From the NCBI GenBank assembly GCA_963707655.1, contig OY970172.1, forward strand, positions 224,001 to 288,000: a stretch of DNA of 64,000 bases, given 5' to 3'. Positions 1,709-48,226 of this stretch are shown here, piece after piece. The position numbers were made by a program, and so were the translations under genes. The notes under the pieces were generated by a model. That model made no database searches and was not told where the DNA came from. It was given only the letters and a program-made list of their open reading frames with translations. This DNA is from an uncultured bacterium. GTDB taxonomy: Bacteria > Babelota > Babeliae > Babelales > Vermiphilaceae. Numbering within the stretch: the stretch's first letter is position 1; every line of letters begins with the position of its first letter.

Positions 1709-2032
1709 ATGATGGTAAGAAAAGTACCTGTTAAAGTTGTTCTTAACGCCGAAGATCGTAATAGGCTTGTTGCCTTCTTCTTGTTGCTTGCCGAAATGAA
1801 TAAAGAAGTAAACGGTAATAACAAGAAAACTAAAAAAGCAAAAACAAAGCCAAAAGATCAAACTAAAATAACCTCCATCTGGGGTGGGGCCTGCCTTAAA
1901 AGCAGGTCTTTTTATTTCCTTACAACTCCTGTATCTTTAAGGGCGGCCCATATAGCTAGCACCCGTAAAAGGTACATCAATGATCGACACAGTTGTTTTA
2001 ACACTCGGCTCGGATATATTCAGCATCATTAA
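1709..2032 (+). CDS. small basic protein upstream of and overlapping rep
   Basis: Lys-rich 107-aa ORF conserved with 22384-22752. Confidence 0.5.
   Translation: MMVRKVPVKVVLNAEDRNRLVAFFLLLAEMNKEVNGNNKKTKKAKTKPKDQTKITSIWGGACLKSRSFYFLTTPVSLRAAHIASTRKRYINDRHSCFNTRLGYIQHH
1888..1913 (+). terminator. terminator/attenuator-like hairpin just upstream of rep
   Basis: GGCCTGC-CTTAAAA-GCAGGTC-TTTTT. Also present at 22566-22591. Confidence 0.5.
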
Positions 2033-3161
2033 CCCAGATGCCTTCACTCCATCGGCCCACTGGGCATTGCCTAACGCAGCCCTTGCTCAGGCGGCCATCC
2101 AATCAAAGCAAAACCCAACCAAAAAAGAATTATTTGCCGGCATTTACAAGCCACGGCTCACATTAGCGCGCCGCATCAACTTGCATGGCCGCAGTGAGAT
2201 TATGCTTAAAATTGAATTGTCTTTGCCCAAGCTCTTTTTCGGCAATAATTTTGATGAGCTGCGCCTGAAAGATTTTAAACCGCTTATGCAAAAATTAGTT
2301 ATCATGTTGGAAGGCATGGGTGTTCGGATTACCGCTGCCGATCTTGCGCGGGCAGACGTACTGGCCGTCCATTACTCCAAAAATATAGCTCTCACGGATG
2401 GCTCAACTCCATACCATTACATCACCAAAATAAAAGAAGCCAACATCAAGTTATCGCTGGACACCAACCAAACGGATTACCGCAATGAAGGCCATAGCTA
2501 CAAATGGCACTGTAACTCATATGAGGTGGTATTTTATGATAAAATTCGCGATCTGGAAAAAGCAAAAAAGAGCGAAAAGCGCGCACTGGAAAAAGATAGC
2601 GCATTGCAGCTAAATTTGTTTGATACATTGCAAAAAAGACAGAAGCTGGAAATATTGCGCATGGAAGTTCGTTTAAATAAGCGGCAGAAAATAAAAACAC
2701 TTTTGCAAGCACTCAAGATTAAGCCCATCCTCACCTTGCAGGGTCTATTTAAAGCGGCCATATCAAAAAAGGTATTATTGCATTACTTGGATGAATTGGA
2801 GCGTAAGAGAAGCCCGTTGCTTGATTACAAGGCAACTGACAAGGGATTGTTAACCGCTTTGATATTTAATAATCCGGAGCTCGGCCCCAAACAGATTTTA
2901 CAATTGTATGGATTAAAGAAAGCGCTGGAACTGGTGGATGCTCGGGAGCTGAGAGTGATGTTTGCCAAATACAATGCGCGCAGCTGGTATCGGCTCATGG
3001 CTGATGCAAAAGTCCACAGTAACGAGTTCACTTGCGGGCATCAGATTGCGTTCTTCAAGAACCTCAACAGCACATTTCATGGTAGCAGGGTAGTAGAGGG
3101 GAAGGCGGCGTACAATAGTGTGCGACAGATAAGGATGGCTGTCCTGTTCAATAGTGGATAA
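1980..3161 (+). pseudogene. phage/plasmid replication protein (gene II/X-like), C-terminus lost and fused to unrelated sequence
   Basis: Near-identical to 22658-23782 up to ...LMADA. It then reads into the antisense strand of the oxidase gene. Confidence 0.7.
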
Positions 3162-12608: not shown

Positions 12609-12660
12609 AAATTATTTTTCTTGATTAACATAAAACTAACTGAAACCTACCAAGCAGAGC

Positions 12661-12784
12661 GCTGCGTAGCAGGAGCGAAGACTGACGGCATCACATCCGC
12701 GCGTTCAGTATGAATCAAATAGAATATAGCTTTAGTTTGCAAAACATTCAAACGCTGTTTTCATCAAAATGCACTGCTACATAG
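12661..12784 (+). mobile_element. degenerate attL-like remnant (orphan recombinase C-terminal tail)
   Basis: CTGCGTAGCAGGAGCGAAGACTG is shared with 20925-20947. It is followed by TGA-CGG and the tail RHHIRAFSMNQIEYSFSLQNIQTLFS, homologous to the 20946 tail. Confidence 0.65.
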
Positions 12785-13316
12785 TATTGGGCGAATACAG
12801 TTTAATGAATTTGCCCTCAACGGCAAAGCGCCCGTGGCCCCAATGGTGAAGTGTATGCTGGCGCTTGCGCGAAGTAGTGATCCACGCTGCCACTACTTCA
12901 ACAATAAAAATGTTGTATTTTGAAACCAGCGTTGTATTTACTACTGTGCACTCAAGGTTAGCAAAGCACTCTCTAATCAACGGCGGCTGTACAATGCTTG
13001 CCGGATCTTGGGTCAGTTCAAATTTTTTAAACTTGTCGATTTTCTTGCCTGAACAGTTGCCTACTCCCACGACCTGTTTTGCCAATTTTGCATCAGGAAT
13101 GTTGATGACGCATTGCCCGGTTGCTTTGAACAAGGAAAAAGAATAATCTTCGCTGCCCATCACCATCGCAATGAGCGGCGGCGTAAAATCAACCATCATG
13201 TGCCACGCCATAGTCATAACATTTGGCTTACCATCTTTTTGCGTGGTAACCATAATGACCGGTCCAGGTTCAATGAGCTGATATACTTTGGATAGAGATA
13301 ACTTTTTTTTCTTCAT
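12777..13316 (-). CDS. flavin reductase family protein
   Basis: PGPVIMVTT, NVMTMAW, GNCSG..IDKF and PPLIRECFANLEC. Confidence 0.85.
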   Translation of the reverse strand: MKKKKLSLSKVYQLIEPGPVIMVTTQKDGKPNVMTMAWHMMVDFTPPLIAMVMGSEDYSFSLFKATGQCVINIPDAKLAKQVVGVGNCSGKKIDKFKKFELTQDPASIVQPPLIRECFANLECTVVNTTLVSKYNIFIVEVVAAWITTSRKRQHTLHHWGHGRFAVEGKFIKLYSPNTM

Positions 13317-18028: not shown

Positions 18029-19363
18029 ATGTATATGATGCATGGTGCAAGCCTGTTCGGCGAAAACCTTATGACGCAAGAGCTCTGGCAGAGACGCTCA
18101 GTAAAAAATCGAAGGTCTCCTTTCTTTAAAAAAAGTTTTTTGTGTGTTGTTCTATCTCTGATGTCCCCAGTATTAGGTTCATCATGTCCTGACACTACGC
18201 CATGGAGTGCGCCGGTTAATGTAAGTAATTCTGGTAATGTCACCAGCAGTATATTCTCTGCGGCAACATCTGCCGGTTTCATGGCCGTGTGGGCAGACTC
18301 TTCAAATAACGCTAATTATAGTTTTTCAAGCGATGGTGCTAGTTGGCAAAGCGGTTTAGTCACTCCTGCCGTAGGGGACGTTGCTCCTTCTTCAGATGTT
18401 TTTGTTGCCGGTAATGCCAGTGGCTTTCTGGTAGCATGGATGGATAGTTCAAATAATGGCTGGTCAAGCTTTTCCGCTAATAATGGCAGTAGCTGGAGTC
18501 CCGCGATTCAAATAAATGGTTCGTTAGCACTGGATCCCAACGCTGATATTTACGTCAGCGCGGGAACGGGCGGTTTTGTCGCCACCATGATAGCAGGGGG
18601 TGGATTCGGCAGCGATAACGCGTATGTAAGTTTTTCGACCGGCACTTCAGGGTGGAGTATTCCTACGCAAGTTACTACCGATGGGTCGGTATCTAACTAT
18701 GCAAATCCGAGCACATCATCAGGAAGAGGATTTGTGTGCGCCGATGTTGTGGGTAATACCTGTATGTTGACGTGGCTCACGGTTAGCTACTCAACAGCTT
18801 CAGCTTTCTTTACCTCAATTAATCCTTTTTCATCAACTACCGTTTATCCTATAGTGAGCGTAGGTTATTATGAAAGCGCTGCTATTGTGGCATCACTCAA
18901 TGGCTATTATATGGAAACTGCACGAGCGAATATAAGTGGTACTAATGGGGTAAATAATTATTCTGTGTGTACGAGCCCGGCTAACTGGGCGGCATTTTCA
19001 GTCACTTTATCAACAGCACCACGCAATCCTGGTGTTGGCCCTTGGGTTGCTGCTAATCCTACTGGCTTTATGTCGAGCTGGGCTGAGACGGCTGATCAGG
19101 CGAGTTATCCGGGCACGCCTATGTGGATCTTCTCCAGTAACAATGGCTTCAACTGGACACCGGTATGTTCTATTTTGCAGTCACCATCATCTACCACCAT
19201 ACTTGGTCCTGTTGGCTTGAGCGGCAATTATAAAGGCTTTGTATCTACGTGGGTAGATAGCGCTGATTCAAATGCGTATGCATCATTTTATTCTGCTCCC
19301 TCATCAACCGGGTATGATGTATTTGTAGAATTACTGCAACAAAAATATGGCCCGCTCTTATAA
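18029..19363 (+). CDS. secreted Ser/Gly-rich Asp-box (BNR) repeat protein, probable beta-propeller
   Basis: Repeats SSDGASW, SANNGSSW, STGTSGW and SSNNGFNW, with recurring GF-x-x-x-W-x-D. Start uncertain. Confidence 0.7.
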   Translation: MYMMHGASLFGENLMTQELWQRRSVKNRRSPFFKKSFLCVVLSLMSPVLGSSCPDTTPWSAPVNVSNSGNVTSSIFSAATSAGFMAVWADSSNNANYSFSSDGASWQSGLVTPAVGDVAPSSDVFVAGNASGFLVAWMDSSNNGWSSFSANNGSSWSPAIQINGSLALDPNADIYVSAGTGGFVATMIAGGGFGSDNAYVSFSTGTSGWSIPTQVTTDGSVSNYANPSTSSGRGFVCADVVGNTCMLTWLTVSYSTASAFFTSINPFSSTTVYPIVSVGYYESAAIVASLNGYYMETARANISGTNGVNNYSVCTSPANWAAFSVTLSTAPRNPGVGPWVAANPTGFMSSWAETADQASYPGTPMWIFSSNNGFNWTPVCSILQSPSSTTILGPVGLSGNYKGFVSTWVDSADSNAYASFYSAPSSTGYDVFVELLQQKYGPLL

Positions 19364-19376
19364 AAGGAAATTTATA

Positions 19377-20798
19377 ATGAAGACACTTTTTACACAAAAA
19401 ACTTTATTCACCTTTCTGGCACTCGCGAGCATAGGAACCCAAATGCTCCGCGCAGATTGCTACGCACATTCTATTTTTGTACCACGTCAACTCGCTTATA
19501 ATCCTATGTATGAAGATGCGCTTGTTTTTGAAGAATATGCGCATATGGATGATAAATTTTTGCTCTCAGTTAAACCCATTTATACGCAAACCGTTGGTAA
19601 ATCGATAAAAAAATATTTTAATATCGATCACTTGTGCTCCATGAATGTGCAAGAAAATGGCTCGGGAAATATTGACTCGCTTTGGTTCCAAGTTATTTCT
19701 GCTCCGGGCGCCTTCTATTCTTCAACATTGTCATTTAATCCGGTGCAAAAAACAGCGGGTGCTTTAGTTTATTTTGCCTGGATGTTTTCTGAAGATTGTG
19801 CATTAACCGTAAACACGGCGTTTATCAACCGAAAAACAAATATGCATATCTGCGAGACAAACATTGCTAATCTTGGGCAAGCGCCCGGATTTGCCACGAT
19901 CAGCCAATCGTTCATGAATCCAGCTATGCTGTATGGCAAAATTTGTGGCGAGCGATCAAAAGGGGGTGTTGATGATCTGCAAATCAAATTGCTCAAGAAT
20001 TTTTATTTGTGTGAGGATGAATCACTATTCGCAGATATCTATGCATTAGTGGGAGTGCCAACAGGACACGGCTCACGAGCAGTGTATCTCTTTGAACCGC
20101 TGGTGGGATCAAATCATGCGCAATTTGGCCTTGGTCTTAACGCTGAAAAATCATTTGACTGCCTGTGTGATGGGTTTTCGTTATACGGTGAGCTTAAATG
20201 GCGTTATGCTTTTAAAGCAACAGAAACCAGATCATTTGATATGGCGCCAAATGGCCAATGGTCGCGCTATATGCTGTTCACCACACCAACGGCAGATGCA
20301 ACACCATTTCCGGCGATTAACGATCTTACGTTTAAAGCACAGGTTACCCCGCGCAACTCATTCGATCTGCTGGTAGCGGCACACGCCGAACTGTGCAGAT
20401 TCAGTTTTGAACTCGGTTACAATTTCTGGTATCGCCAATCAGAAAAAGTGTGCCCCTACATCTGCTTGCCTCCCGTTGGTATTGCCGATCTGGTAGGTAT
20501 AGCGCAATTGCCGGCACCGGTGACTATCACTACCTCAAGCAAGGCAACTATTTCTGAAGGAGTGTATCCAAATCAATATCAAATGCCGCGTGATGCAGCA
20601 TACACCGTGGTAACTGCAGCAAATATTAATCCCTGCAGTGGCGCACAAGCAGCTTCAATGGCAAACGGCGTATTTGGTTCAATCGGTTGTCAATGTAATT
20701 GCTGGGATTTCGGCCTCAATGCATCATACGAAGGGGCCGCAAATAGCAATACCGCAAGTGTTGCTTCAGTATGGGTGAACATCGATTTTCTGTTTTAA
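19377..20798 (+). CDS. secreted protein, possible outer-membrane beta-barrel
   Basis: Signal peptide, alternating beta-strand patterns (FELGYNFWYR) and terminal Phe (NIDFLF). Confidence 0.6.
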   Translation: MKTLFTQKTLFTFLALASIGTQMLRADCYAHSIFVPRQLAYNPMYEDALVFEEYAHMDDKFLLSVKPIYTQTVGKSIKKYFNIDHLCSMNVQENGSGNIDSLWFQVISAPGAFYSSTLSFNPVQKTAGALVYFAWMFSEDCALTVNTAFINRKTNMHICETNIANLGQAPGFATISQSFMNPAMLYGKICGERSKGGVDDLQIKLLKNFYLCEDESLFADIYALVGVPTGHGSRAVYLFEPLVGSNHAQFGLGLNAEKSFDCLCDGFSLYGELKWRYAFKATETRSFDMAPNGQWSRYMLFTTPTADATPFPAINDLTFKAQVTPRNSFDLLVAAHAELCRFSFELGYNFWYRQSEKVCPYICLPPVGIADLVGIAQLPAPVTITTSSKATISEGVYPNQYQMPRDAAYTVVTAANINPCSGAQAASMANGVFGSIGCQCNCWDFGLNASYEGAANSNTASVASVWVNIDFLF

Positions 20799-20846: not shown

Positions 20847-20899
20847 ATTGAGTAATCTAATTAAGAAACTGGTTCTAATTGGCTCCTTCCAGAGTTGCT

Positions 20900-20948
20900 A
20901 AGAACTGGTCTGCCAGACGAAGCCCTGCGTAGCAGGAGCGAAGACTGG
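20900..20948 (-). repeat. tRNA-downstream palindromic element displaced from tRNA-Asp
   Basis: Minus strand reads CCAGTCTTCGC...GCTTCGTCTGGCAGACCAGTTCTT. The sequence after tRNA-Phe has the same architecture: CCAGCCTACGC..GCTACGGCTGGCGCGGCCAGTTCTT. Confidence 0.7.
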
Positions 20949-21023
20949 CGGTACCTCATTGACGCGTTCGGTACGCATGATGTTGAATTTAGCTTTAGCT
21001 TACAAAGCATCCAAACGGTATTT

Positions 21024-21896
21024 TCATTGCTTGGAGTTGGCAATCCCACATAGTATTCCTAAACAAAAGGGATAAAAAACTTGAAAAAGTGTAACGGGAC
21101 CGCGACACTTAAAGAATTGGGCTTTTTCTTTTGGTCCGTATTCAGTAGCTACGCCATAAAGAATAATGTTTTGAATTTGTTTATCTTTAAAGATCACTTT
21201 CCATAGGGCGCCACCGCTTAAACCACAAAAAGATTTAGGAACTTTATTTTTTGTTTGAATCGGGCAAGTAATATAATCTAAGGTAACCATAAGATTAATA
21301 GGAGCTTCATAGGAACAGGTCCCATATTCAATAGTACTGGGTATCACTATATTGGATCCACCTTTATAAACTACAATTATATTATAAGGTGGTGTTGAAA
21401 CTCCATATTGTCTTTTTTTACCTTCAGCTACAACACCATTAATAACCCAAATGCCTGCTTTACTATCATCTACAGTGAAAGGTTTATGTTCTTGGGCGGA
21501 TTGGTCCATGTCCCAAAACCTTTTGCCCAAACTTTCAATGACTTCATAGGCGCTTGGACGCAGAGCAAAAAAAGCTAAATCAACTCCAACACCCGGAGCA
21601 AGTGCAGGTATTCTAATGATGTTCTCAAATTGTAAAATTTTTGAATCTGGAGCCGAATATAATATATGCACATAAGAAAGGTTTTTATCTATGAAAATTT
21701 TTGCTACGTGATCATTAGTTAACAATCCTTTTACTCCACCAATTATAACAAATGTTCCACTACCAAGCTCTGTATCTTTTATTATGCTGGAGGGACTAAA
21801 TAATGCAGTACTATATATGCCAGTAGCTTGAGCTACACTGTTTTTATAATAATCTTGTTCTTCAAGTGTCATTGTTGATTCGTTTTTTTCATTCAT
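21024..21896 (-). CDS. trypsin-like serine peptidase domain protein (no signal peptide)
   Basis: GSGTFV, LLTNDHVA (His), VDLAFF (Asp) and GLSGGALW (Ser). Confidence 0.7.
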   Translation of the reverse strand: MNEKNESTMTLEEQDYYKNSVAQATGIYSTALFSPSSIIKDTELGSGTFVIIGGVKGLLTNDHVAKIFIDKNLSYVHILYSAPDSKILQFENIIRIPALAPGVGVDLAFFALRPSAYEVIESLGKRFWDMDQSAQEHKPFTVDDSKAGIWVINGVVAEGKKRQYGVSTPPYNIIVVYKGGSNIVIPSTIEYGTCSYEAPINLMVTLDYITCPIQTKNKVPKSFCGLSGGALWKVIFKDKQIQNIILYGVATEYGPKEKAQFFKCRGPVTLFQVFYPFCLGILCGIANSKQ

Positions 21897-22031
21897 GAGT
21901 TTTGCCTTTTGTTACTTATTCATTAAAGATTTAAAATTGTATAAAGGTTAAGGAGTTACCCAAACAATTGCAATTAAGCTATGGAATTTTTGTTACACCT
22001 CTAAAAGAACCACATATACTTTCTCAAAGAG

Positions 22032-22099
22032 CAATTTTATAACACGAACCATTCAAACGATATTCTATTGGGCCATGATTGCGAACCAATAGAACGTAA
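22032..22099 (-). repeat. ~60-bp element-internal motif, copy A (inverted)
   Basis: Reverse complement TTACGTTCTATTGGTTCGCAATCATGGCCCAATAGAATATCGTTTGAATGGTTCGTGTTATAAAATTG aligns to copies B and C. Confidence 0.85.
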
Positions 22100-22123
22100 T
22101 TCAAAAGAAAAGGTGATTTGTTC

Positions 22124-22151
22124 TTGCAATTCATTACAAATCACCTATAAT
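22124..22151 (+). promoter_or_regulatory. sigma70-type promoter of the rep module
   Basis: TTGCAA-16 nt-TATAAT, conserved with 1448-1475. Confidence 0.65.
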
Positions 22152-22194
22152 CTCCAGCAATGTAATGAATGTATCTGCACCCAAGGAGAGCACA

Positions 22195-22293
22195 ATGAAA
22201 TTCATCTTACCTATCAGGGCACATAGCCTGATTACATCCATCCATGAGCAGTGGCTCACGCGTTGCGATGCATCGGACATACTCGTGCAATAG
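22195..22293 (+). CDS. 32-aa leader peptide (small ORF)
   Basis: AAGGAG RBS, then MKFILPIRAHSLITSIHEQWLTRCDASDILVQ*. Homologous to 1520-1618. Confidence 0.45.
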   Translation: MKFILPIRAHSLITSIHEQWLTRCDASDILVQ

Positions 22294-22383
22294 CACCCAC
22301 ACCCAAAACAATCCCTATTAATTTTTAAATATACGCTGATAAGAGATCGGCATGGATGATACCTGAATCCTTGAAAGTTTTTT

Positions 22384-22752
22384 ATGATGGTAAGAAGAAA
22401 AGTACCTGTTAAAGTTGTTCTCAATGCTGAAGAACTCAATAAAATGGCTATGTTCTTTGCAGTTCTTGTTGCGGTTGACAGACGAGTCAATGGTAATAAA
22501 AACAAAGCTAAAAAAGCAAAAATGAAGCCAAAAGACCAAACTAAAATAACCTCCATTTGGAATGAGGCCTGCCTAAAAAGCAGGTCTTTTTATTTCCTTA
22601 CAACTACTGTATCTTTAAGGGCAGCCCATGAAAGTAGCGCCCGTAAAAGGTACATCAATGATAGACACAGTTGTTTTAACACTCGGCTCGGATATATTCA
22701 GCATCACCGATCTGGATGCCTTTACTCCATCAGCTCATTGGGCATTGCCTAA
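22384..22752 (+). CDS. small basic protein overlapping the rep start
   Basis: Homologous to 1709-2032. Confidence 0.5.
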   Translation: MMVRRKVPVKVVLNAEELNKMAMFFAVLVAVDRRVNGNKNKAKKAKMKPKDQTKITSIWNEACLKSRSFYFLTTTVSLRAAHESSARKRYINDRHSCFNTRLGYIQHHRSGCLYSISSLGIA

Positions 22753-23782
22753 TGCAGCCCGTGTTCAGCCGGGCACCCAATCAAAACAAAACCCAACCAA
22801 AAAAGAGTTATTGGCCGGCATTTACAAGCCTCGGCTCACACTCGCGCGCCGCATCAATTTGCATGGCCGCAGTGAGATTATGCTTAAAATTGAGTTATCT
22901 CTTCCCAAGCTATTTTTCGGCAACAATTTTGATGAACTGCGCCTGAAAGATTTTAAACCGCTCATGCAAAAATTAGTTACGGCGCTAGAGAGCATGGGTG
23001 TTCGTGTTACTGCTGCCGATCTTGCACAGGCAGACGTACTGGCCGTCCATTATTCTAAAAATATTCTTCTTAAGGACGGTTCAACTCCATACCACTACAT
23101 TAATAAAATAAGAGAAGCCAATATCAAGCTATCGCTTGATACGAACCAAACGGATTACCGCAATGAAGGCCATAGCTACAAATGGCACTGCAATTCATAT
23201 GAAGTGGTATTTTATGACAAAATTCGCGATCTTGAAAAAGCAAAGAAGAGCGAAAAGCGCGCGCTGGAAAAAGATAGCGCATTGCAGCTGAATCTATTTG
23301 ATATGTTGCAAAAAAGGAAAAAGCTGGAAATATTGCGCATGGAAGTGCGCCTGAATAAGCGGCAAAAAATAAAACAACTTTTGCAAGCACTCAAGATTAA
23401 GCCCATCCTCACCTTGCAGGGCTTATTTAAAGGTGCTATATCAAAAAAGGTATTATTGCATTACTTGGATGAATTGGAGCGTAAGAGAAGCCCATTGCTT
23501 GATTACAGGGCTACGGATAAGGGATTGCTAACCGCTTTGATATTTAATAACCCTGATCTTGGTCCCAAACAGATTTTACAATTGTATGGATTAAAGAAGG
23601 CGCTTGAAGTGGTGGATGCTCGCGAGCTGAGAGTGATGTTTGCCAAATACAATGCACGCAGTTGGTATCGGCTCATGGCTGATGCAAATAAGGTTAAACT
23701 GCCAATGAAAAATAGCTCATTCAGCGAAATACGAAAACATTTAATTAAATTTAAGCCATTGAGGTACAATTCATGGCTTTAA
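22658..23782 (+). CDS. phage/plasmid replication initiation protein, gene II/X-like (rolling-circle type)
   Basis: MIDTV start, ELSLPKLFFGNN, VVFYDK..DL and ILRMEVRL match the motif order I recognise for the gene II/X family. Confidence 0.65.
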   Translation: MIDTVVLTLGSDIFSITDLDAFTPSAHWALPNAARVQPGTQSKQNPTKKELLAGIYKPRLTLARRINLHGRSEIMLKIELSLPKLFFGNNFDELRLKDFKPLMQKLVTALESMGVRVTAADLAQADVLAVHYSKNILLKDGSTPYHYINKIREANIKLSLDTNQTDYRNEGHSYKWHCNSYEVVFYDKIRDLEKAKKSEKRALEKDSALQLNLFDMLQKRKKLEILRMEVRLNKRQKIKQLLQALKIKPILTLQGLFKGAISKKVLLHYLDELERKRSPLLDYRATDKGLLTALIFNNPDLGPKQILQLYGLKKALEVVDARELRVMFAKYNARSWYRLMADANKVKLPMKNSSFSEIRKHLIKFKPLRYNSWL

Positions 23783-24468
23783 AATCACCTGCACAAAAAA
23801 TTATGTCCTCTCTTGCTATGTTCAAATTTTCAAGAACAGAATTGCGTTTTATGCGAGATGAAGCGGTGAATTGGGAAGAATTGAGTAAACAAATAATGGA
23901 AGGGACAAATTGTATTCCGATTGGAAAGACAAAATCTGATTATGCAAAAGTAATTGAGGCGATTCGCTTGGCTGCTTGCGGCTATCATGTTGAGATTATG
24001 GGACAGGCTTTAGAAGAATATATTTCTGAAAAAAACTTGAGTAATATTGCTTCTTTATATGAGTTAGAAAAATATTTATTTCTTCTTAGATGTGCTTTAT
24101 TGCACACAGAGGGGGAGTTGCTGGCTAAATGGCAATTTAATAGAAACAATCCAACTAAAAAAGAGATAAATGCTATAAAGAAACTACAAGCAGGAGGTTT
24201 AAAAATTAAAATCCCTGTTATAAAAGTGGAAGGAAAAGACGATTGTTATGATGAAAAATCAGAAATCTATAAGAAATTAACATTTAAAGTATATCTTAAA
24301 AAAAATAACAATAATGGAACCACCCATCCAATAGTTAGATTAAATGAAGGATTGATATATAAACTGATGCTTTTAAGTGATCACGTTTGCACTATTACAA
24401 AAAAGAAAAATCCATCTACATTACTTAAATATTTGAACCGAACTACTGTGAAAGAAAGAACAATATAA
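23773..24468 (+). CDS. hypothetical protein overlapping the rep stop
   Basis: 231-aa AT-rich ORF with no motif recognised. Confidence 0.55.
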   Translation: MALKSPAQKIMSSLAMFKFSRTELRFMRDEAVNWEELSKQIMEGTNCIPIGKTKSDYAKVIEAIRLAACGYHVEIMGQALEEYISEKNLSNIASLYELEKYLFLLRCALLHTEGELLAKWQFNRNNPTKKEINAIKKLQAGGLKIKIPVIKVEGKDDCYDEKSEIYKKLTFKVYLKKNNNNGTTHPIVRLNEGLIYKLMLLSDHVCTITKKKNPSTLLKYLNRTTVKERTI

Positions 24469-24486
24469 GAATAAGAAATAAAAGCG

Positions 24487-24553
24487 TTACGTGCTATTGG
24501 TTCGCAATCATGGCAAAACAGGATTCCGTTGATTGGTTCGTGTTATAAAATTG
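24487..24553 (+). repeat. ~60-bp element-internal motif, copy B
   Basis: TTACGTGCTATTGGTTCGCAATCATGGCAAAACAGGATTCCGTTGATTGGTTCGTGTTATAAAATTG. Confidence 0.85.
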
Positions 24554-26069
24554 GATTGATCTTGTGTGATAAGTGTTGCAAGATTTTATACATCGCATAA
24601 GTATCTAGCTGGCAATACTGCCTTAAATTGTTGGCGATTTCATTTTTTTCAGTTTCGGTGAGGGTTGCTCCCAGCATGGCAAACCATTTTTCGGAAGCGG
24701 CTCCGCCATCTTGAATCCCTAATGTAGCGTAAGACAGTTCGGGTACCAAAACAGGTAATATATTCTTGATAGATGTCTTTCCATTAAAGCCTGCGGCTAC
24801 ATAATGTTGTTTTTTAAAGATTTCTTCTAAATCAAAAAAACGATTATTTAAATTCTGTAAAAACGCTTCATATTCGGGATGACGTTCGCCTAATCCATTA
24901 TTTATCATTTGTTCAAAACTTTTATGCCAAACAATAATACTGCCAACATGACCTATCAGATCCATAAGCTTCTTAATTATAATCTCTGACGGATCAGAAT
25001 TAAATTCATGAAGATATTCATAATGTGCTGGCTCAGAATCAGTATCAGTTAACACATATAAAGAAAATTGAAATGGAAGTTGTTGATATGGTGTAAAGCC
25101 GTTAAAAAGCGGGATGGGGGAAGAATAGCTTTCATAATCTAGGAAGTATAATGGATACACCAGCTTATCCAATTCATGCTTGATTGCTATGGAATCAAAA
25201 ATTAGTTTTTTAAATTTGTAAGCATTCACCTGATTTTTTTGTATGTCAGTCAATTCAAAATTGTCAGGAATGTCATCAATATTCAAAATATTGGCATTAA
25301 TTAACGGGGTAAGTTTTTTTTGATTGATTCTGGCGATATCATGCACCGAGACAGCTGGTACATATGCATGTGAATAGCCAAATGACTTACAGTGTGTACT
25401 GCGTCCTTTATAAATACAATTACATGCTAAGGCTTCTTGTTCATTTTGTAACAAATCAATTTTCGCCTGCTGCATTCTGATTCTTGTTCTAGGTTCTCGT
25501 TCTTTCACCTTATCGGTTATATTACTGATAATAAAAAGCTCATTAATATCAATATCATGTATCCGAACATAATCTTTGTTAAGATGAATGATGAAGATAT
25601 CTTCTAGTTCAATTCCCTTCTCTTGCAATACTATTGCCTGGAAGGTAGCATCTTCAATGTGATCATTTTCATCACTAGTTTCTTCTAAAGAATTTTTCCC
25701 TTTTATTTCATAAAGTTTCCACTTGCCGCTTGTTGCATTGTATTCAAGCACGTCATTCCGTACTAAAAATTTGTCATGATAAAACGTTGCCTGAAACAAT
25801 ATGGGTGTCTTTTGTTCTATGTGTGATTGGGTAAGAAGAGCGGCATCATTACCATGCTTGTCGATCAGGATAGCTTGAGGGAACAATTGTTGCGCCCACG
25901 ATTCGGCCAAATTTCCTTTATCCAAAATGCCTTGTTCAAAGGCTGACAATGCAAAAAAATCCTGCAATACATCTTTTTTGTGTAGTCTGAGCCAGGCATT
26001 TTTTGGACATGCCAAATATTCTCGATATATAGTTTTATGAACAAATTTATTCATATCAATAACCGCCAT
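24543..26069 (-). CDS. DUF2779 domain-containing protein (predicted nuclease)
   Basis: CPKNAWL, YEIK, YPLYFLDYES...PYQQLPFQFS, SIKNILPVL and YCQLDTYAM. Confidence 0.75.
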   Translation of the reverse strand: MAVIDMNKFVHKTIYREYLACPKNAWLRLHKKDVLQDFFALSAFEQGILDKGNLAESWAQQLFPQAILIDKHGNDAALLTQSHIEQKTPILFQATFYHDKFLVRNDVLEYNATSGKWKLYEIKGKNSLEETSDENDHIEDATFQAIVLQEKGIELEDIFIIHLNKDYVRIHDIDINELFIISNITDKVKEREPRTRIRMQQAKIDLLQNEQEALACNCIYKGRSTHCKSFGYSHAYVPAVSVHDIARINQKKLTPLINANILNIDDIPDNFELTDIQKNQVNAYKFKKLIFDSIAIKHELDKLVYPLYFLDYESYSSPIPLFNGFTPYQQLPFQFSLYVLTDTDSEPAHYEYLHEFNSDPSEIIIKKLMDLIGHVGSIIVWHKSFEQMINNGLGERHPEYEAFLQNLNNRFFDLEEIFKKQHYVAAGFNGKTSIKNILPVLVPELSYATLGIQDGGAASEKWFAMLGATLTETEKNEIANNLRQYCQLDTYAMYKILQHLSHKINPIL

Positions 26070-26160
26070 GAAAGAAATGATAAATATCGCCTATTGAATA
26101 TATTATGCTACTTGCAAATAAAGTACAGCGATTATTACCATTTTTCATGTTTATTCCGAG

Positions 26161-26220
26161 TTTCGTCCATTGGTTCGTAATCATAGCCCAGCAGAATTCC
26201 GTTGATTGGTTCATGTCACT
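26161..26220 (+). repeat. ~60-bp element-internal motif, copy C
   Basis: TTTCGTCCATTGGTTCGTAATCATAGCCCAGCAGAATTCCGTTGATTGGTTCATGTCACT. Confidence 0.8.
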
Positions 26221-26308
26221 ATGATAATTGTTATCGAAATAGCACTCTTGTGATAGACTGCTACGTTAAAAATACTCTCTTTTAAACAAATAAATTGAGG
26301 TAAAAAAT

Positions 26309-26758
26309 ATGTGCATATTTAGCTGGATATTTAAAAAAACAAAAGATACACCCACTATAAGTGTAGAGCAATTTGTATCTGAATCATTAGTACAAATTTG
26401 CAATGGAATTCGAAGCGCACAAACAAAAATAACCAGAATTCCTTTTGGAACAGATGAAGATAAATATTTTGTTCCCTATATTATGCCCTATCCAGCGGGA
26501 GGTAGAAAAGATGAAATATCTCAAATTCACTTTGATATTGCCGTTACTGTCTCGCATGCTAGATCTACCTCACATGTTGAAACCACATCAATCAAGGGCG
26601 CAATAACCACGCCGAATATATTCGTTGTCGAAGGACGTGCTAACTTAGAAAAAGGAAAAACAACTGACCAATCTGCTTCTTCAATTAGTCGCATAACCTT
26701 TTCTATTCCTGTTATTTATCCTCGGATGCCATTGCCTCTCTCTGGGAGTGAAAAATGA
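26309..26758 (+). CDS. hypothetical protein, Trypco2-like
   Basis: FVSESLVQI..GI..AQ, IHFDIAVTV and SISRITFSIPV pattern. ATGA overlap with the recombinase. Confidence 0.5.
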   Translation: MCIFSWIFKKTKDTPTISVEQFVSESLVQICNGIRSAQTKITRIPFGTDEDKYFVPYIMPYPAGGRKDEISQIHFDIAVTVSHARSTSHVETTSIKGAITTPNIFVVEGRANLEKGKTTDQSASSISRITFSIPVIYPRMPLPLSGSEK

Positions 26759-28212
26759 AAGCAATCCTTATAGCTAGAGTAAGCACCGAAGAACAAAGAG
26801 AAGCCGGCAATTCATTACCTGCCCAGGTAGCACGGCTCGAAAGATACTGCCAAACAAAAGGCTTTAAGGTTGCACAAATTTGTAGCTTTGATGAAAGCGC
26901 CTATACCAATGATCGCTCAGAGTTTGACCGTATAATTGATATCATTTTGGCTCAAACGGAAAAGACCGCTGTTTGCTGCGATAAAGTGGATAGGCTTTCC
27001 CGGAATGTGTTTGATAAGCGTATCTCCATCCTTTATGAAAGAGCTTTAAATGATCAGATAGAACTGCATTTTGTATCCGATGGCCAGATCATTACCAGCC
27101 GTATCTCTGCCGTGGAAAAATTCCAATTCAGCATCAGTCTGGGCTTAGCGAAGTACTATTCAGATGCCATCAGCGATAACGTCAAGCGTGCATTGGAACA
27201 AAAGCTCCGCAGGGGAGAATGGCCAGCCATGGCTCCCTTTGGCTATAAAAATATCACTAAGGCTGATGGCAATACCGATATCATTATGGATGAGTATGAA
27301 GCGCATATTATAAGAACCATATTCGAGTACTATGCCACGGGTGGCTATTCAATCGATCTGCTGCGTATAAAAATTAAAAATGACTATGGGCTCGATTGGG
27401 CCAAGGGGTATGTCTGGAAGATTCTTAACAACCATTTCTTCCACGGTATCATGATCGTAAAAGGGAAGTCATATCCCCATCGCTATCCAACCATCATCAC
27501 CCAGGCGCTCTTTGATCAGGTGCAAAAAGTAAAAGCCAGCTTTAATAAACAGCCGGTTAAATTTGCCGGGCTTCCTTTCATGTATCGCGGCCTTATCCGC
27601 TGTGAGCAGTGTGGATGCGCCATAACCCCCGAGAAGCACAAGGGGCACGTCTATTACCATTGTACTCAATATAACGGCAAGCATGGGGCAAAATGGCTGC
27701 GGGAAGAAAAGCTTACGGAACAACTGGTGGAGATTTTTAAAAGTCTTCAAATGCCAAAAGATGTATTGTTGCAAATAACCGAGACACTCAATGCGGTTCA
27801 TGAAGATAAAGTTGAGTTTCATGAGAAGGAATTTGATAAGCTCACTGCCGAACAGAAAATGATCTCCAAGATGATCGACAATCTCTACCTTGATAAACTG
27901 AAGGGGAGAATTACTGACAGCGAGTATGACAGATTTTACACATCGTTTAGAGATCAAATCACCGATATCAGTATCCGTCTTGAGAAATTACAAGAAGCCG
28001 AAGACAACTATTATGTTACGGCAAAATACCTACTGAATCTGGTTAATAGAGCTTTTGATGTATTTATGAGTTCTGAAGTGGAAGAAAAAAGGCAATTAAT
28101 CAAGTTTATACTATCGAACCTGAGACTAGATGATGAGAAACTGCTCTGGGACAGTGCAAAGCCATTTGATCTGATCCTAAATTGTTCGGATCGACAACAA
28201 TGGCGGAGCTGA
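26755..28212 (+). CDS. large serine recombinase (integrase); stop codon lies inside tRNA-Asp
   Basis: ARVSTEEQ catalytic Ser, DRLSRN, APFGY, zinc ribbon CEQCG...YYHC and a coiled coil. Ends QQWRS* at 28212. Confidence 0.92.
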   Translation: MKAILIARVSTEEQREAGNSLPAQVARLERYCQTKGFKVAQICSFDESAYTNDRSEFDRIIDIILAQTEKTAVCCDKVDRLSRNVFDKRISILYERALNDQIELHFVSDGQIITSRISAVEKFQFSISLGLAKYYSDAISDNVKRALEQKLRRGEWPAMAPFGYKNITKADGNTDIIMDEYEAHIIRTIFEYYATGGYSIDLLRIKIKNDYGLDWAKGYVWKILNNHFFHGIMIVKGKSYPHRYPTIITQALFDQVQKVKASFNKQPVKFAGLPFMYRGLIRCEQCGCAITPEKHKGHVYYHCTQYNGKHGAKWLREEKLTEQLVEIFKSLQMPKDVLLQITETLNAVHEDKVEFHEKEFDKLTAEQKMISKMIDNLYLDKLKGRITDSEYDRFYTSFRDQITDISIRLEKLQEAEDNYYVTAKYLLNLVNRAFDVFMSSEVEEKRQLIKFILSNLRLDDEKLLWDSAKPFDLILNCSDRQQWRS

Positions 28213-28278
28213 TGGGACTCGAACCCACGACCTTCCGCGTGACAGGCGGACGCTCTAACCAAACTGAGCTACAGCTCC
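28201..28278 (-). tRNA. tRNA-Asp (GTC)
   Basis: GGAGCTGTAGCTCAGTTTGGTTAGAGCG...CTGTCAC...GGTTCGAGTCC...CTCCGCCA cloverleaf with encoded CCA. Confidence 0.96.
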
Positions 28279-47920: not shown

Positions 47921-47996
47921 GCCTACGCCAAGGCTACGGCTGGCGCGGCCAGTTCTTCTGAGGAAGATGATTGATGTTAATTGCAACATCGTAGGT

Positions 47997-48046
47997 TGTC
48001 CGTCGTAGCTTGCCAAGCCTGAAGGCATGGATAAGCGAAGACTGGA
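47997..48046. repeat. 50-bp REP-like palindromic element, copy 1
   Basis: 42/50 identical to 61898-61947, with compensatory stem changes. Confidence 0.8.
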
Positions 48047-48226
48047 CTGGCATAGCCAACAGAATGCGTTTCACTTACCTCTTATCTCTCTCTTCATTAC
48101 ATTGGATTTTATTTCTCAGTTGCTTTTTATCGCAGCACCATGTTTCATTTATGCTTGTGCTCTCATCACTTTGTATGGTATAGAATTACAAAGATTTTAT
48201 ATGATAAGAAAAAAGGTAAAGTGATT

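Follow-up and report, generated by a model that had tools for sequence, protein, structure and literature searches.

A small integrative element of the Babelales with a large serine recombinase gene that very probably crosses its own attachment site

Phage large serine integrases act on an attachment site (attP) that lies outside the int open reading frame (ORF), and excision by these enzymes requires a separate recombination directionality factor (RDF). An attP positioned within the integrase gene is a logic known from tyrosine enzymes. For the integrase IntP of the Myxococcus phage Mx8, an attP within the integrase coding sequence is described, where integration generates a new 3′ end (intP to intX) and leaves an active enzyme with changed properties (PMC6070905). 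In the SSV-type 'suicidal' integrases of archaeal viruses and plasmids, the recombination site is placed within the integrase ORF, which is disrupted upon integration (PMC7253208), and in the integration-dependent immunity of mycobacteriophage BPs, an attP inside a gene makes the integrated and free states encode different isoforms (PMC4557955). In this study, a window of 64,000 nucleotides from an uncultured bacterium of the Babelales (assembly GCA_963707655.1, contig OY970172.1; designated here G000:C1:224001-288000, from a single-contig genome of 1.09 Mb) was analysed, which contains a unit of 7255 bp with ends marked by TGGCGG at 20946 and 28201, the latter at a tRNA-Asp gene. This unit is very probably the integrated copy of a small plasmid-like integrative element, the recombinase gene of which crosses its own attachment site, with the C-terminal tail of the enzyme located at the opposite end.

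Comparison with these systems delimits the locus. The enzyme is a large serine recombinase (LSR), and membership in the Mx8/SSV class of tyrosine integrases was therefore rejected, the likeness being one of working only. As in Mx8, which reportedly also targets tRNA-Asp genes, attP would lie inside the integrase's own gene and two protein forms would result; Mx8, however, is a tailed phage with a tyrosine recombinase, whereas the present LSR is encoded by a capsid-less 7-kb element and the part swapped is a conserved tail of ~33 aa beyond the canonical fold. The SSV type shares a crossover site within the integrase ORF, yet there a tyrosine integrase gene is cut in two, while here the last 6% of a serine recombinase would be replaced with every known domain kept. 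As in BPs, the protein isoform would depend on the integration state, but in BPs a repressor is split alongside a tyrosine integrase, whereas here it is the recombinase itself. The phage serine integrases of phiC31, Bxb1, A118/LI and SPbeta resemble the LSR in domain set, fold and short attP/attB identity, as for a 2-bp crossover; unlike those phages, the present element yielded no recognisable RDF candidate and targets the CCA ends of tRNAs. A literature search returned no paper in which the ORF of a serine recombinase contains the element's own attP, and nothing linking Dependentiae with serine recombinases; the serine version is without precedent in the literature found. The sre gene of phage R4 may overlap its attP and would then be a possible precedent. 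The accessible text of an LSR survey (10.1101/2021.11.05.467528) and of the tycheposon preprint (10.1101/2020.12.28.424599) makes no mention of a serine version.

The recombinase gene and its detached tail

The integrated isoform of the LSR carries the Pfam domains Resolvase (PF00239; 74.3 bits, cut-off 23.3, residues 3-156), Recombinase (PF07508; 38.5 bits, cut-off 21.1) and Zn_ribbon_recom (PF13408; 31.4 bits, cut-off 25.3), and matches PHROG 95 'integrase' (E 3e-66). Its ARVSTEEQ segment aligns to TRVSTTNQ of the TP901-1 integrase (3bvp), the catalytic domain with the nucleophilic serine being present, and the zinc-ribbon residues C283, C286 and C303 are invariant across 101 sequences. An initial annotation of this DNA had proposed that the recombinase ends in tRNA-Asp antisense, and this was borne out: the 485-aa protein terminates in CSDRQQWRS and, because its ORF overlaps the tRNA-Asp gene, the last 12 nt (TGG CGG AGC TGA) are the antisense of the tRNA 3′ end (...CAGCTCC-G-CCA), with the encoded CCA included. 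That annotation had also described a TGGCGG 7255 bp to the left with an open in-frame tail, in agreement with the sequence, in which the core at 20946 is followed in frame by WRYLIDAFGTHDVEFSFSLQSIQTVFSLLGVGNPT and a stop at 21053; the length of 517 aa that it gave for the excised form equals 482 + 35 residues. The integrated ORF ends two codons past the predicted crossover, in tRNA antisense, and its continuation, the conserved ~33-aa tail, lies at the far end of the element.

Using tblastn with the tail ORF, tails were identified in five of six related elements. Each is encoded on the same strand as the recombinase, at the other end of the element (6.2-10.5 kb off), and follows the core immediately, in frame with the W codon. 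Five further tails were found in metagenome loci. An alignment of 11 tails (A2) yields the pattern W-R/L-x-L-V-D-x-F-x3-E-I-x-F-x-F-S-L-x2-I-Q-T-V-F, in which W1, L19 and F26 are invariant. Tails that read WCALSDYFRTF... occur in a paralogue family and ..DYFRTFSF.. tails in other homologues, indicating that the feature is old.

Substitution patterns show that the tail evolves as protein. The proportion of nonsynonymous differences (pN) was below that of synonymous differences (pS) in all 15 pairs of tails compared, and in 27/28 pairs for codons 1-8 and 28/28 for codons 9-27; synonymous sites are saturated (median pS 0.73), with pN at 0.21-0.34. Frame 0 is open in all eight tails, the stops coming after 31-48 codons, and the shifted frames contain stops in 22/28 and 28/28 pairs. 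If conservation acted on the tail purely at the DNA level, because it is the P′ arm of attP or some other cis-acting site, its translation would be incidental and the real enzyme would comprise ~485 aa in both states. This alternative is consistent with the first ~24 nt past the core, which must be a recombinase half-site and show a GAC spaced as in the tRNA T-arm, and with the low confidence of the tail in an AlphaFold2 (AF2) model (see below). LSR att half-sites usually measure 20-25 nt, however, and conservation extends to ~80 nt from the core; since codons 9-27 (25-80 nt from the core) lie past the usual half-site, the pure DNA-site reading is weak, and their pN of 0.34 against the saturated pS, as well as the open frame, are likewise at odds with it, rendering it most improbable. 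A tail that evolves as protein is preferred, with its initial ~24 nt probably serving in addition as the P′ arm of attP.

The position of the break was examined in an AF2 model of P0055, a natural protein of 516 aa that is 70% identical to the window LSR and carries the tail contiguously (101 sequences; mean predicted local distance difference test (pLDDT) 77.5). The model shows long helices at 335-439, as in the coiled coil of LSRs, and aligned by VIA-align to the Bxb1 integrase (9iu2_A; Z 15.2, root-mean-square deviation (rmsd) 16.1, 422 aligned, model residues 1-478), the SPbeta integrase (9y66_A; Z 14.9) and the LI integrase (4kis_B; Z 14.6, rmsd 7.8, 280 aligned, model residues 141-470), while the phiC31 integrase aligns to model residues 1-470. 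The alignments to canonical LSR structures end at model residues 470-478 and the break-point W is residue 483; because this W lies beyond the aligned fold, integration would keep the whole canonical fold and swap the extension only. In the modelled structure, the break falls after the catalytic domain, the recombinase domain and the zinc ribbon with its coiled coil.

P0055 ends in ...DSQLWSPLVDAFRNGKVEFTISLSHIQSTFSFLNASLQ and reads across the joint as ...PFDLILDSVDSQLWSPLVDAFRNGKVEFTISLSHIQSTFSFLNASLQ. A profile of 11 tails, searched against 1.84 billion representatives (E<=0.001), matched 162 proteins (clusters), the best 150 of which measure 34-244 aa and carry the tail C-terminally; most matches are short ORFs called across attL sites. 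Among the 29 matches longer than 100 aa, nine contig-edge fragments join a recombinase end (PFD..W) to the tail. No full-length representative of ~515 aa was present among the best 150 matches, which says little because each 50% cluster is represented in the library by a single sequence. Homologous recombinases with a contiguous tail, on which the initial annotation had staked its proposal, are hence represented by P0055 and these nine fragments. A search with the C-terminal half of the recombinase returned 486 proteins, and neither P0055 nor alignment A3 found a relative among IMG/VR viral contigs. In two metagenome loci (L047:1832-3499 and L060:2295-3995), a foreign recombinase ORF (25-30% identical) continues in frame into the type-1 tail of a neighbouring family element, which suggests tandem arrays with internal junctions of the attP form.

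Tandem arrays of the kind seen at L047 and L060 thus create natural hybrid enzymes.

The tRNA-Asp target and its displaced trailer

The insertion point of the element coincides with the CCA/discriminator end of the sole tRNA-Asp gene of the genome, tRNA-Asp(gtc), which stays whole. An Islander-type tRNA island, in which a long repeat restores the 3′ part of the tRNA, was considered and rejected, as the repeat is 6 bp, the tRNA is never interrupted and the crossover lies at the CCA/discriminator. TGGCGG occurs 32 times in the window versus 21.3 +/- 4.1 in shuffles; the 6-bp repeat alone is not significant, and it is the family-wide sequence comparison that lifts the finding above chance. The initial annotation had further noted GACnCG at a matching distance in the tail and the tRNA T-arm, and both the attL copy (GACGCG) and the tRNA copy (GACTCG) indeed begin 9 nt past the core.

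For the family comparison, 41 genomes (G000 and 40 relatives) were searched, and a homologue was present in 21. At 16 of the 17 related-genome loci scanned (Asp 4, Glu 9, Arg 3), the LSR and tRNA genes are convergent and overlap at the 3′ end of the tRNA, and in 16/17 the conserved part of the LSR stops at a W whose TGG corresponds to the tRNA CCA. Beyond this W follows tRNA antisense of variable length (WRG, WRP, WRPQGDLNPCFRRERAMS and WCAR, each ending at a stop). The same rule holds in 22 of 33 rows of metagenome loci (Asp, Glu, Gln, Asn, Leu), and among 120 database homologues, 79 stop at most 4 aa past the W, 25 continue into tRNA antisense, 13 have extensions of another kind and three are without the motif. 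Blocks of identity between attL and attR in relatives are short (6-12 bp; TGGCGTCC, TGGCATCC and AAGTATGGCGTC), placing the crossover within or just after the W-R codons.

Directly left of the attL core, the initial annotation had seen a hairpin of the tRNA-Phe type, which proves to be part of a genome-wide tRNA trailer marking former tRNA-Asp downstream DNA. On the tRNA strand, this trailer reads GTCTTCGCT, with a hairpin CCTGC-TAC-GCAGG, then GCTTCGT and a second hairpin CTGG-CAGA-CCAG. The same trailer type follows the CCA directly in 20 of the 38 tRNAs of the genome, where it starts with nnCTTCG in 11 cases (four exactly GTCTTCG), with GTCTTTGC in two and with GCCTnnGC, as after tRNA-Phe, in seven; the DNA left of 20946 therefore looks like a tRNA downstream region, and the element has displaced the tRNA-Asp trailer by 7.3 kb. 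In elements at tRNA-Glu, the trailer motif was found left of attL in L034, L035 and L036 but not in L037, and the trailer (GTCTTCGC...), judged from its recurrence, may be a shared B half-site. It may also serve as a processing or terminator signal or as a landing pad for elements. No Rfam family matches the tRNA trailers.

An empty site was sought in relatives. Genome G001, of the same genus and 87% complete, has no LSR match; its tRNA-Asp, without an adjoining LSR, is preceded by GGCGAAGAC, TGGCGG and AGCTGATGG in direct succession, with GTCTTCGCC downstream, and this arrangement holds exactly the 23-nt attB junction that the initial annotation had predicted. Genome G002 shows ..AAAGAC directly followed by TGGCGG, and genome G003 is without the trailer; the left-flank DNA gave no useful match in five relatives.

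Two further observations concern the trailers themselves. The two-hairpin trailer occurs in the forms nnCTTCGC..GCTTCGTCTGGC-N4-GCCAG or GCCTACGCCAAGGCTACGGCTGG.., in the window after tRNA-Phe at 47921-48050. Inverted trailer copies ending in ..GCGAAGACTGG are present ~110 nt beyond tRNA-Phe and tRNA-Ser(gct).

Gene content, neighbouring remnants and mobility

The only features shared across the six elements compared are the recombinase, a replication-initiator (rep) candidate with a small preceding ORF and, in five of six, the tail (Table 1). Copies of the rep candidate are 48-69% identical and present in 6/6 related loci, with no match in Pfam, PHROGs or NCBIfam even at E<=10; the nearest ESM Atlas clusters score 0.97, and Phage_CRI is carried by 25-31% of their members, which are feature neighbours only. 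The 'gene II/X-like Rep' of the initial annotation therefore stands as a lead to a Phage_CRI/gene II-type rolling-circle initiator (PF05144), drawn from the Atlas neighbours and not from a hidden Markov model (HMM) match. The small ORF is conserved in its first ~60 aa alone, is K/R-rich (..V.L..DE..K.A.F..LL..D.R..), precedes rep in 6/6 elements and is fused to it in frame in L036. Possible roles for its product are those of a regulator, an N-terminal domain of Rep or a directionality factor.

The cargo varies among relatives and consists here of the 290-aa, 231-aa, DUF2779 508-aa and 149-aa ORFs. Among the related elements compared, only that of genome G005 carries a homologue (40% identical) of the 290-aa ORF, the GLSGG and TNDH motifs of which we take, by eye and without HMM support, to recall a chymotrypsin-like (chymotrypsin-fold serine) protease. 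The DUF2779 ORF also gave a weak NCBIfam UU173 match, under the family cut-off. In agreement with the initial annotation, scans of the element ORFs against Pfam, PHROGs and NCBIfam revealed no excisionase, capsid or conjugation genes, and no RDF-like family was detected in the same scans.

Table 1. Features of the element and of related remnants in the window
Feature	Position	Strand	Evidence or remarks
Second rep copy (ORF 1980..3161), older element remnant	1956..3008	+	tblastn, 92.6% identical, aa 3-353
Decayed attL-like site: trailer, TGACGG, tail	12648..12790	+	Tail 62% aa identity
Displaced tRNA-Asp 3′ trailer, attL B arm	20899..20945	-	Shared trailer type
attL core TGGCGG	20946..20951	+	Antisense of C-G(discriminator)-CCA of tRNA-Asp
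Detached recombinase C-terminal tail, 35 codons + stop	20946..21053	+	In frame behind core
Cargo ORF, 290 aa	21024..21896	-	No Pfam, PHROG or NCBIfam family
Small ORF, starting upstream of rep and overlapping it	22384..22752	+	
Replication-initiator (rep) candidate, 384 aa	22628..23782	+	Conserved
Cargo ORF, 231 aa	23773..24468	+	No family in Pfam, PHROGs, NCBIfam; not conserved in relatives
Cargo ORF, 508 aa, DUF2779	24543..26069	-	Pfam PF11074, E 2.7e-37
ORF, 149 aa, stop overlapping recombinase start (ATGA)	26309..26758	+	No family in Pfam, PHROGs, NCBIfam; not conserved in relatives
LSR, integrated isoform, 485 aa	26755..28212	+	Pfam, PHROG
attR core TGGCGG	28201..28206	+	
tRNA-Asp(gtc), intact, B′ arm	28201..28278	-	ARAGORN; Rfam tRNA 72.9 bits

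Related remnants are found to the left of the element. A homologous tail near 12683, as the initial annotation had reported, is present with its W codon mutated to TGA, and the homology at this decayed site also covers ~35 nt of the trailer on the left side of the core. Outside the window, ~1.2 kb to the left of its start (genome positions 222785-222890), there is a third tail remnant. Together with the second rep copy, these remnants make the ~29 kb left of tRNA-Asp look like a pile of older insertions, a region that also holds ankyrin, GNAT, APH, MutS-domain and beta-CASP genes.

Such decayed relatives (the 12683 tail, the tail left of the window and a rep without recombinase) would fit an alternative in which the present copy is a fixed, immobile remnant and its split gene a fossil of one past integration without present role, as would the lack of a circle in the public runs found, namely three low-depth Logan contig sets from soil metagenomes, in which 9-21% of the words were present. 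Against this alternative, the tail frame, both cores and every ORF of the element are intact; relatives at 57-83% identity retain the same intact layout, and a soil-metagenome contig (run X1, low depth) matches 20908-21209 at 301 of 302 positions. The fixed-remnant alternative is on this evidence very unlikely, and a mobile element remains the preferred reading. Joints at 27708/27787 and inside the tRNA cluster were discarded as deriving from tRNAs of other organisms or from variants.

Several observations stand beside these. To the left of position 20908, which marks the outer limit of the trailer, the X1 contig diverges into sequence resembling the trailer flank of genome G017. Two of the attL-like sites each have a trailer of their own, an arrangement that simple site-specific recombination cannot produce, since it does not duplicate the B arm. 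Immediately left of the trailer, a 483-aa protein (19347-20798) with a signal-like N-terminus and a 444-aa protein (18029-19363) rich in S, G and N, both without a family match, may be host surface proteins or old cargo.

A paralogue in G000, 32% identical to the LSR, ends in KWCAR and a stop within tRNA-Arg(tct), with the WCALSDYFRTF... tails at the far end. The paralogous element (G000:C1:996006-1014800) has four attL-like sites (GGGCACACCA, trailer and WCALS.YF.. tail) at 1006372, 1009337, 1012190 and 1014687, ~2.5-3 kb apart, and near-identical repeats flanking these sites suggest a tandem array or a segmental duplication.

Proposed cycle and significance

Several results weigh against an integrated element with a recombinase gene that crosses its own attachment site. 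Identity between the G001 site and G000 extends only 8 nt past the core, and the further flank is not syntenic, the rest of the 627-bp G001 flank giving no blastn or tblastx match to G000. In genome G005, a 71%-identical recombinase (L038; G005:C20, 3924-8412) ends in WR and a stop (TGGCGGTAG) beside chromosomal genes (MutS-like), and neither a tRNA nor a tail was found at this locus, which may be a pseudo-site insertion or a decayed copy. Neither the circle junction nor the empty site was bridged in the three Logan contig sets, which consist of short, low-depth pieces. Dyad symmetry of the rebuilt attP and attB is weak (best 9-11/24 positions, with inconsistent centres and two relatives mis-anchored), and the tail (residues 481-516) has a pLDDT <50 in the P0055 model, so that its function gets no structural hint. 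As recombinase-tail ORFs occur inside chromosomal arrays (the L047 contig measures 905 kb), contiguity is no proof of free circles, and the pair counts for the tail overstate independence because the tail sequences compared are kin. Weighed with the consistent placement of cores, tails and tRNA ends across the family, an element of this kind is nevertheless very probable.

In the proposed cycle, excision would join both ends of the element into a circle that encodes the 517-aa enzyme and would be copied by the Rep-like protein. The 517-aa form would integrate the circle (attP x attB), and codons 1-8 of the tail would double as a P′ half-site that would mimic the tRNA T-arm (GAC at the same spacing). 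After integration, the chromosome would make the 485-aa form, which would be the form available for excision or a less active one, so that the protein itself would report the state of the element. The swap of the tail may act on directionality, synapsis or stability.

The more specific proposal that the gene topology is a directionality switch, in which the tail licenses attP x attB or blocks attL x attR and the 485-aa form excises without an RDF, is tentative and regarded as unlikely. A stability signal, in which the tail acts as a C-terminal degron and the circle-encoded or truncated enzyme is short-lived, as in BPs immunity, rather than setting direction, is similarly doubtful: the final residues of many tails are non-polar (..ICA, ..IAV, ..IAI, ..LPI, ..VDI), and in BPs a C-terminal part of a protein is removed via an attP inside its gene (PMC4557955), whereas the conserved block of the tail is internal (FSLQxIQTVF) and its extreme C-terminus varies in length and sequence.

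Serine integrases are valued as tools since they act one way until a separate directionality factor is added, and a family in which integration rewrites the C-terminus of the enzyme would offer a simple test of whether a tail sets direction, synapsis or stability. If the directionality switch were true, thousands of elements in Dependentiae and Patescibacteria would use an RDF-free logic, and retargeting among tRNAs would proceed through a near-universal T-arm/CCA half-site and a conserved trailer half-site. The sources of homologous proteins name Candidatus Dependentiae/Babeliales as the host group, and the element would belong to a large Dependentiae/Patescibacteria family. It would represent a widespread family of mobile elements in little-studied bacteria with small genomes, a group from which few such elements have been described, with one enzyme lineage moving among the CCA ends of the tRNAs for Asp, Glu, Arg, Gln, Asn and Leu.

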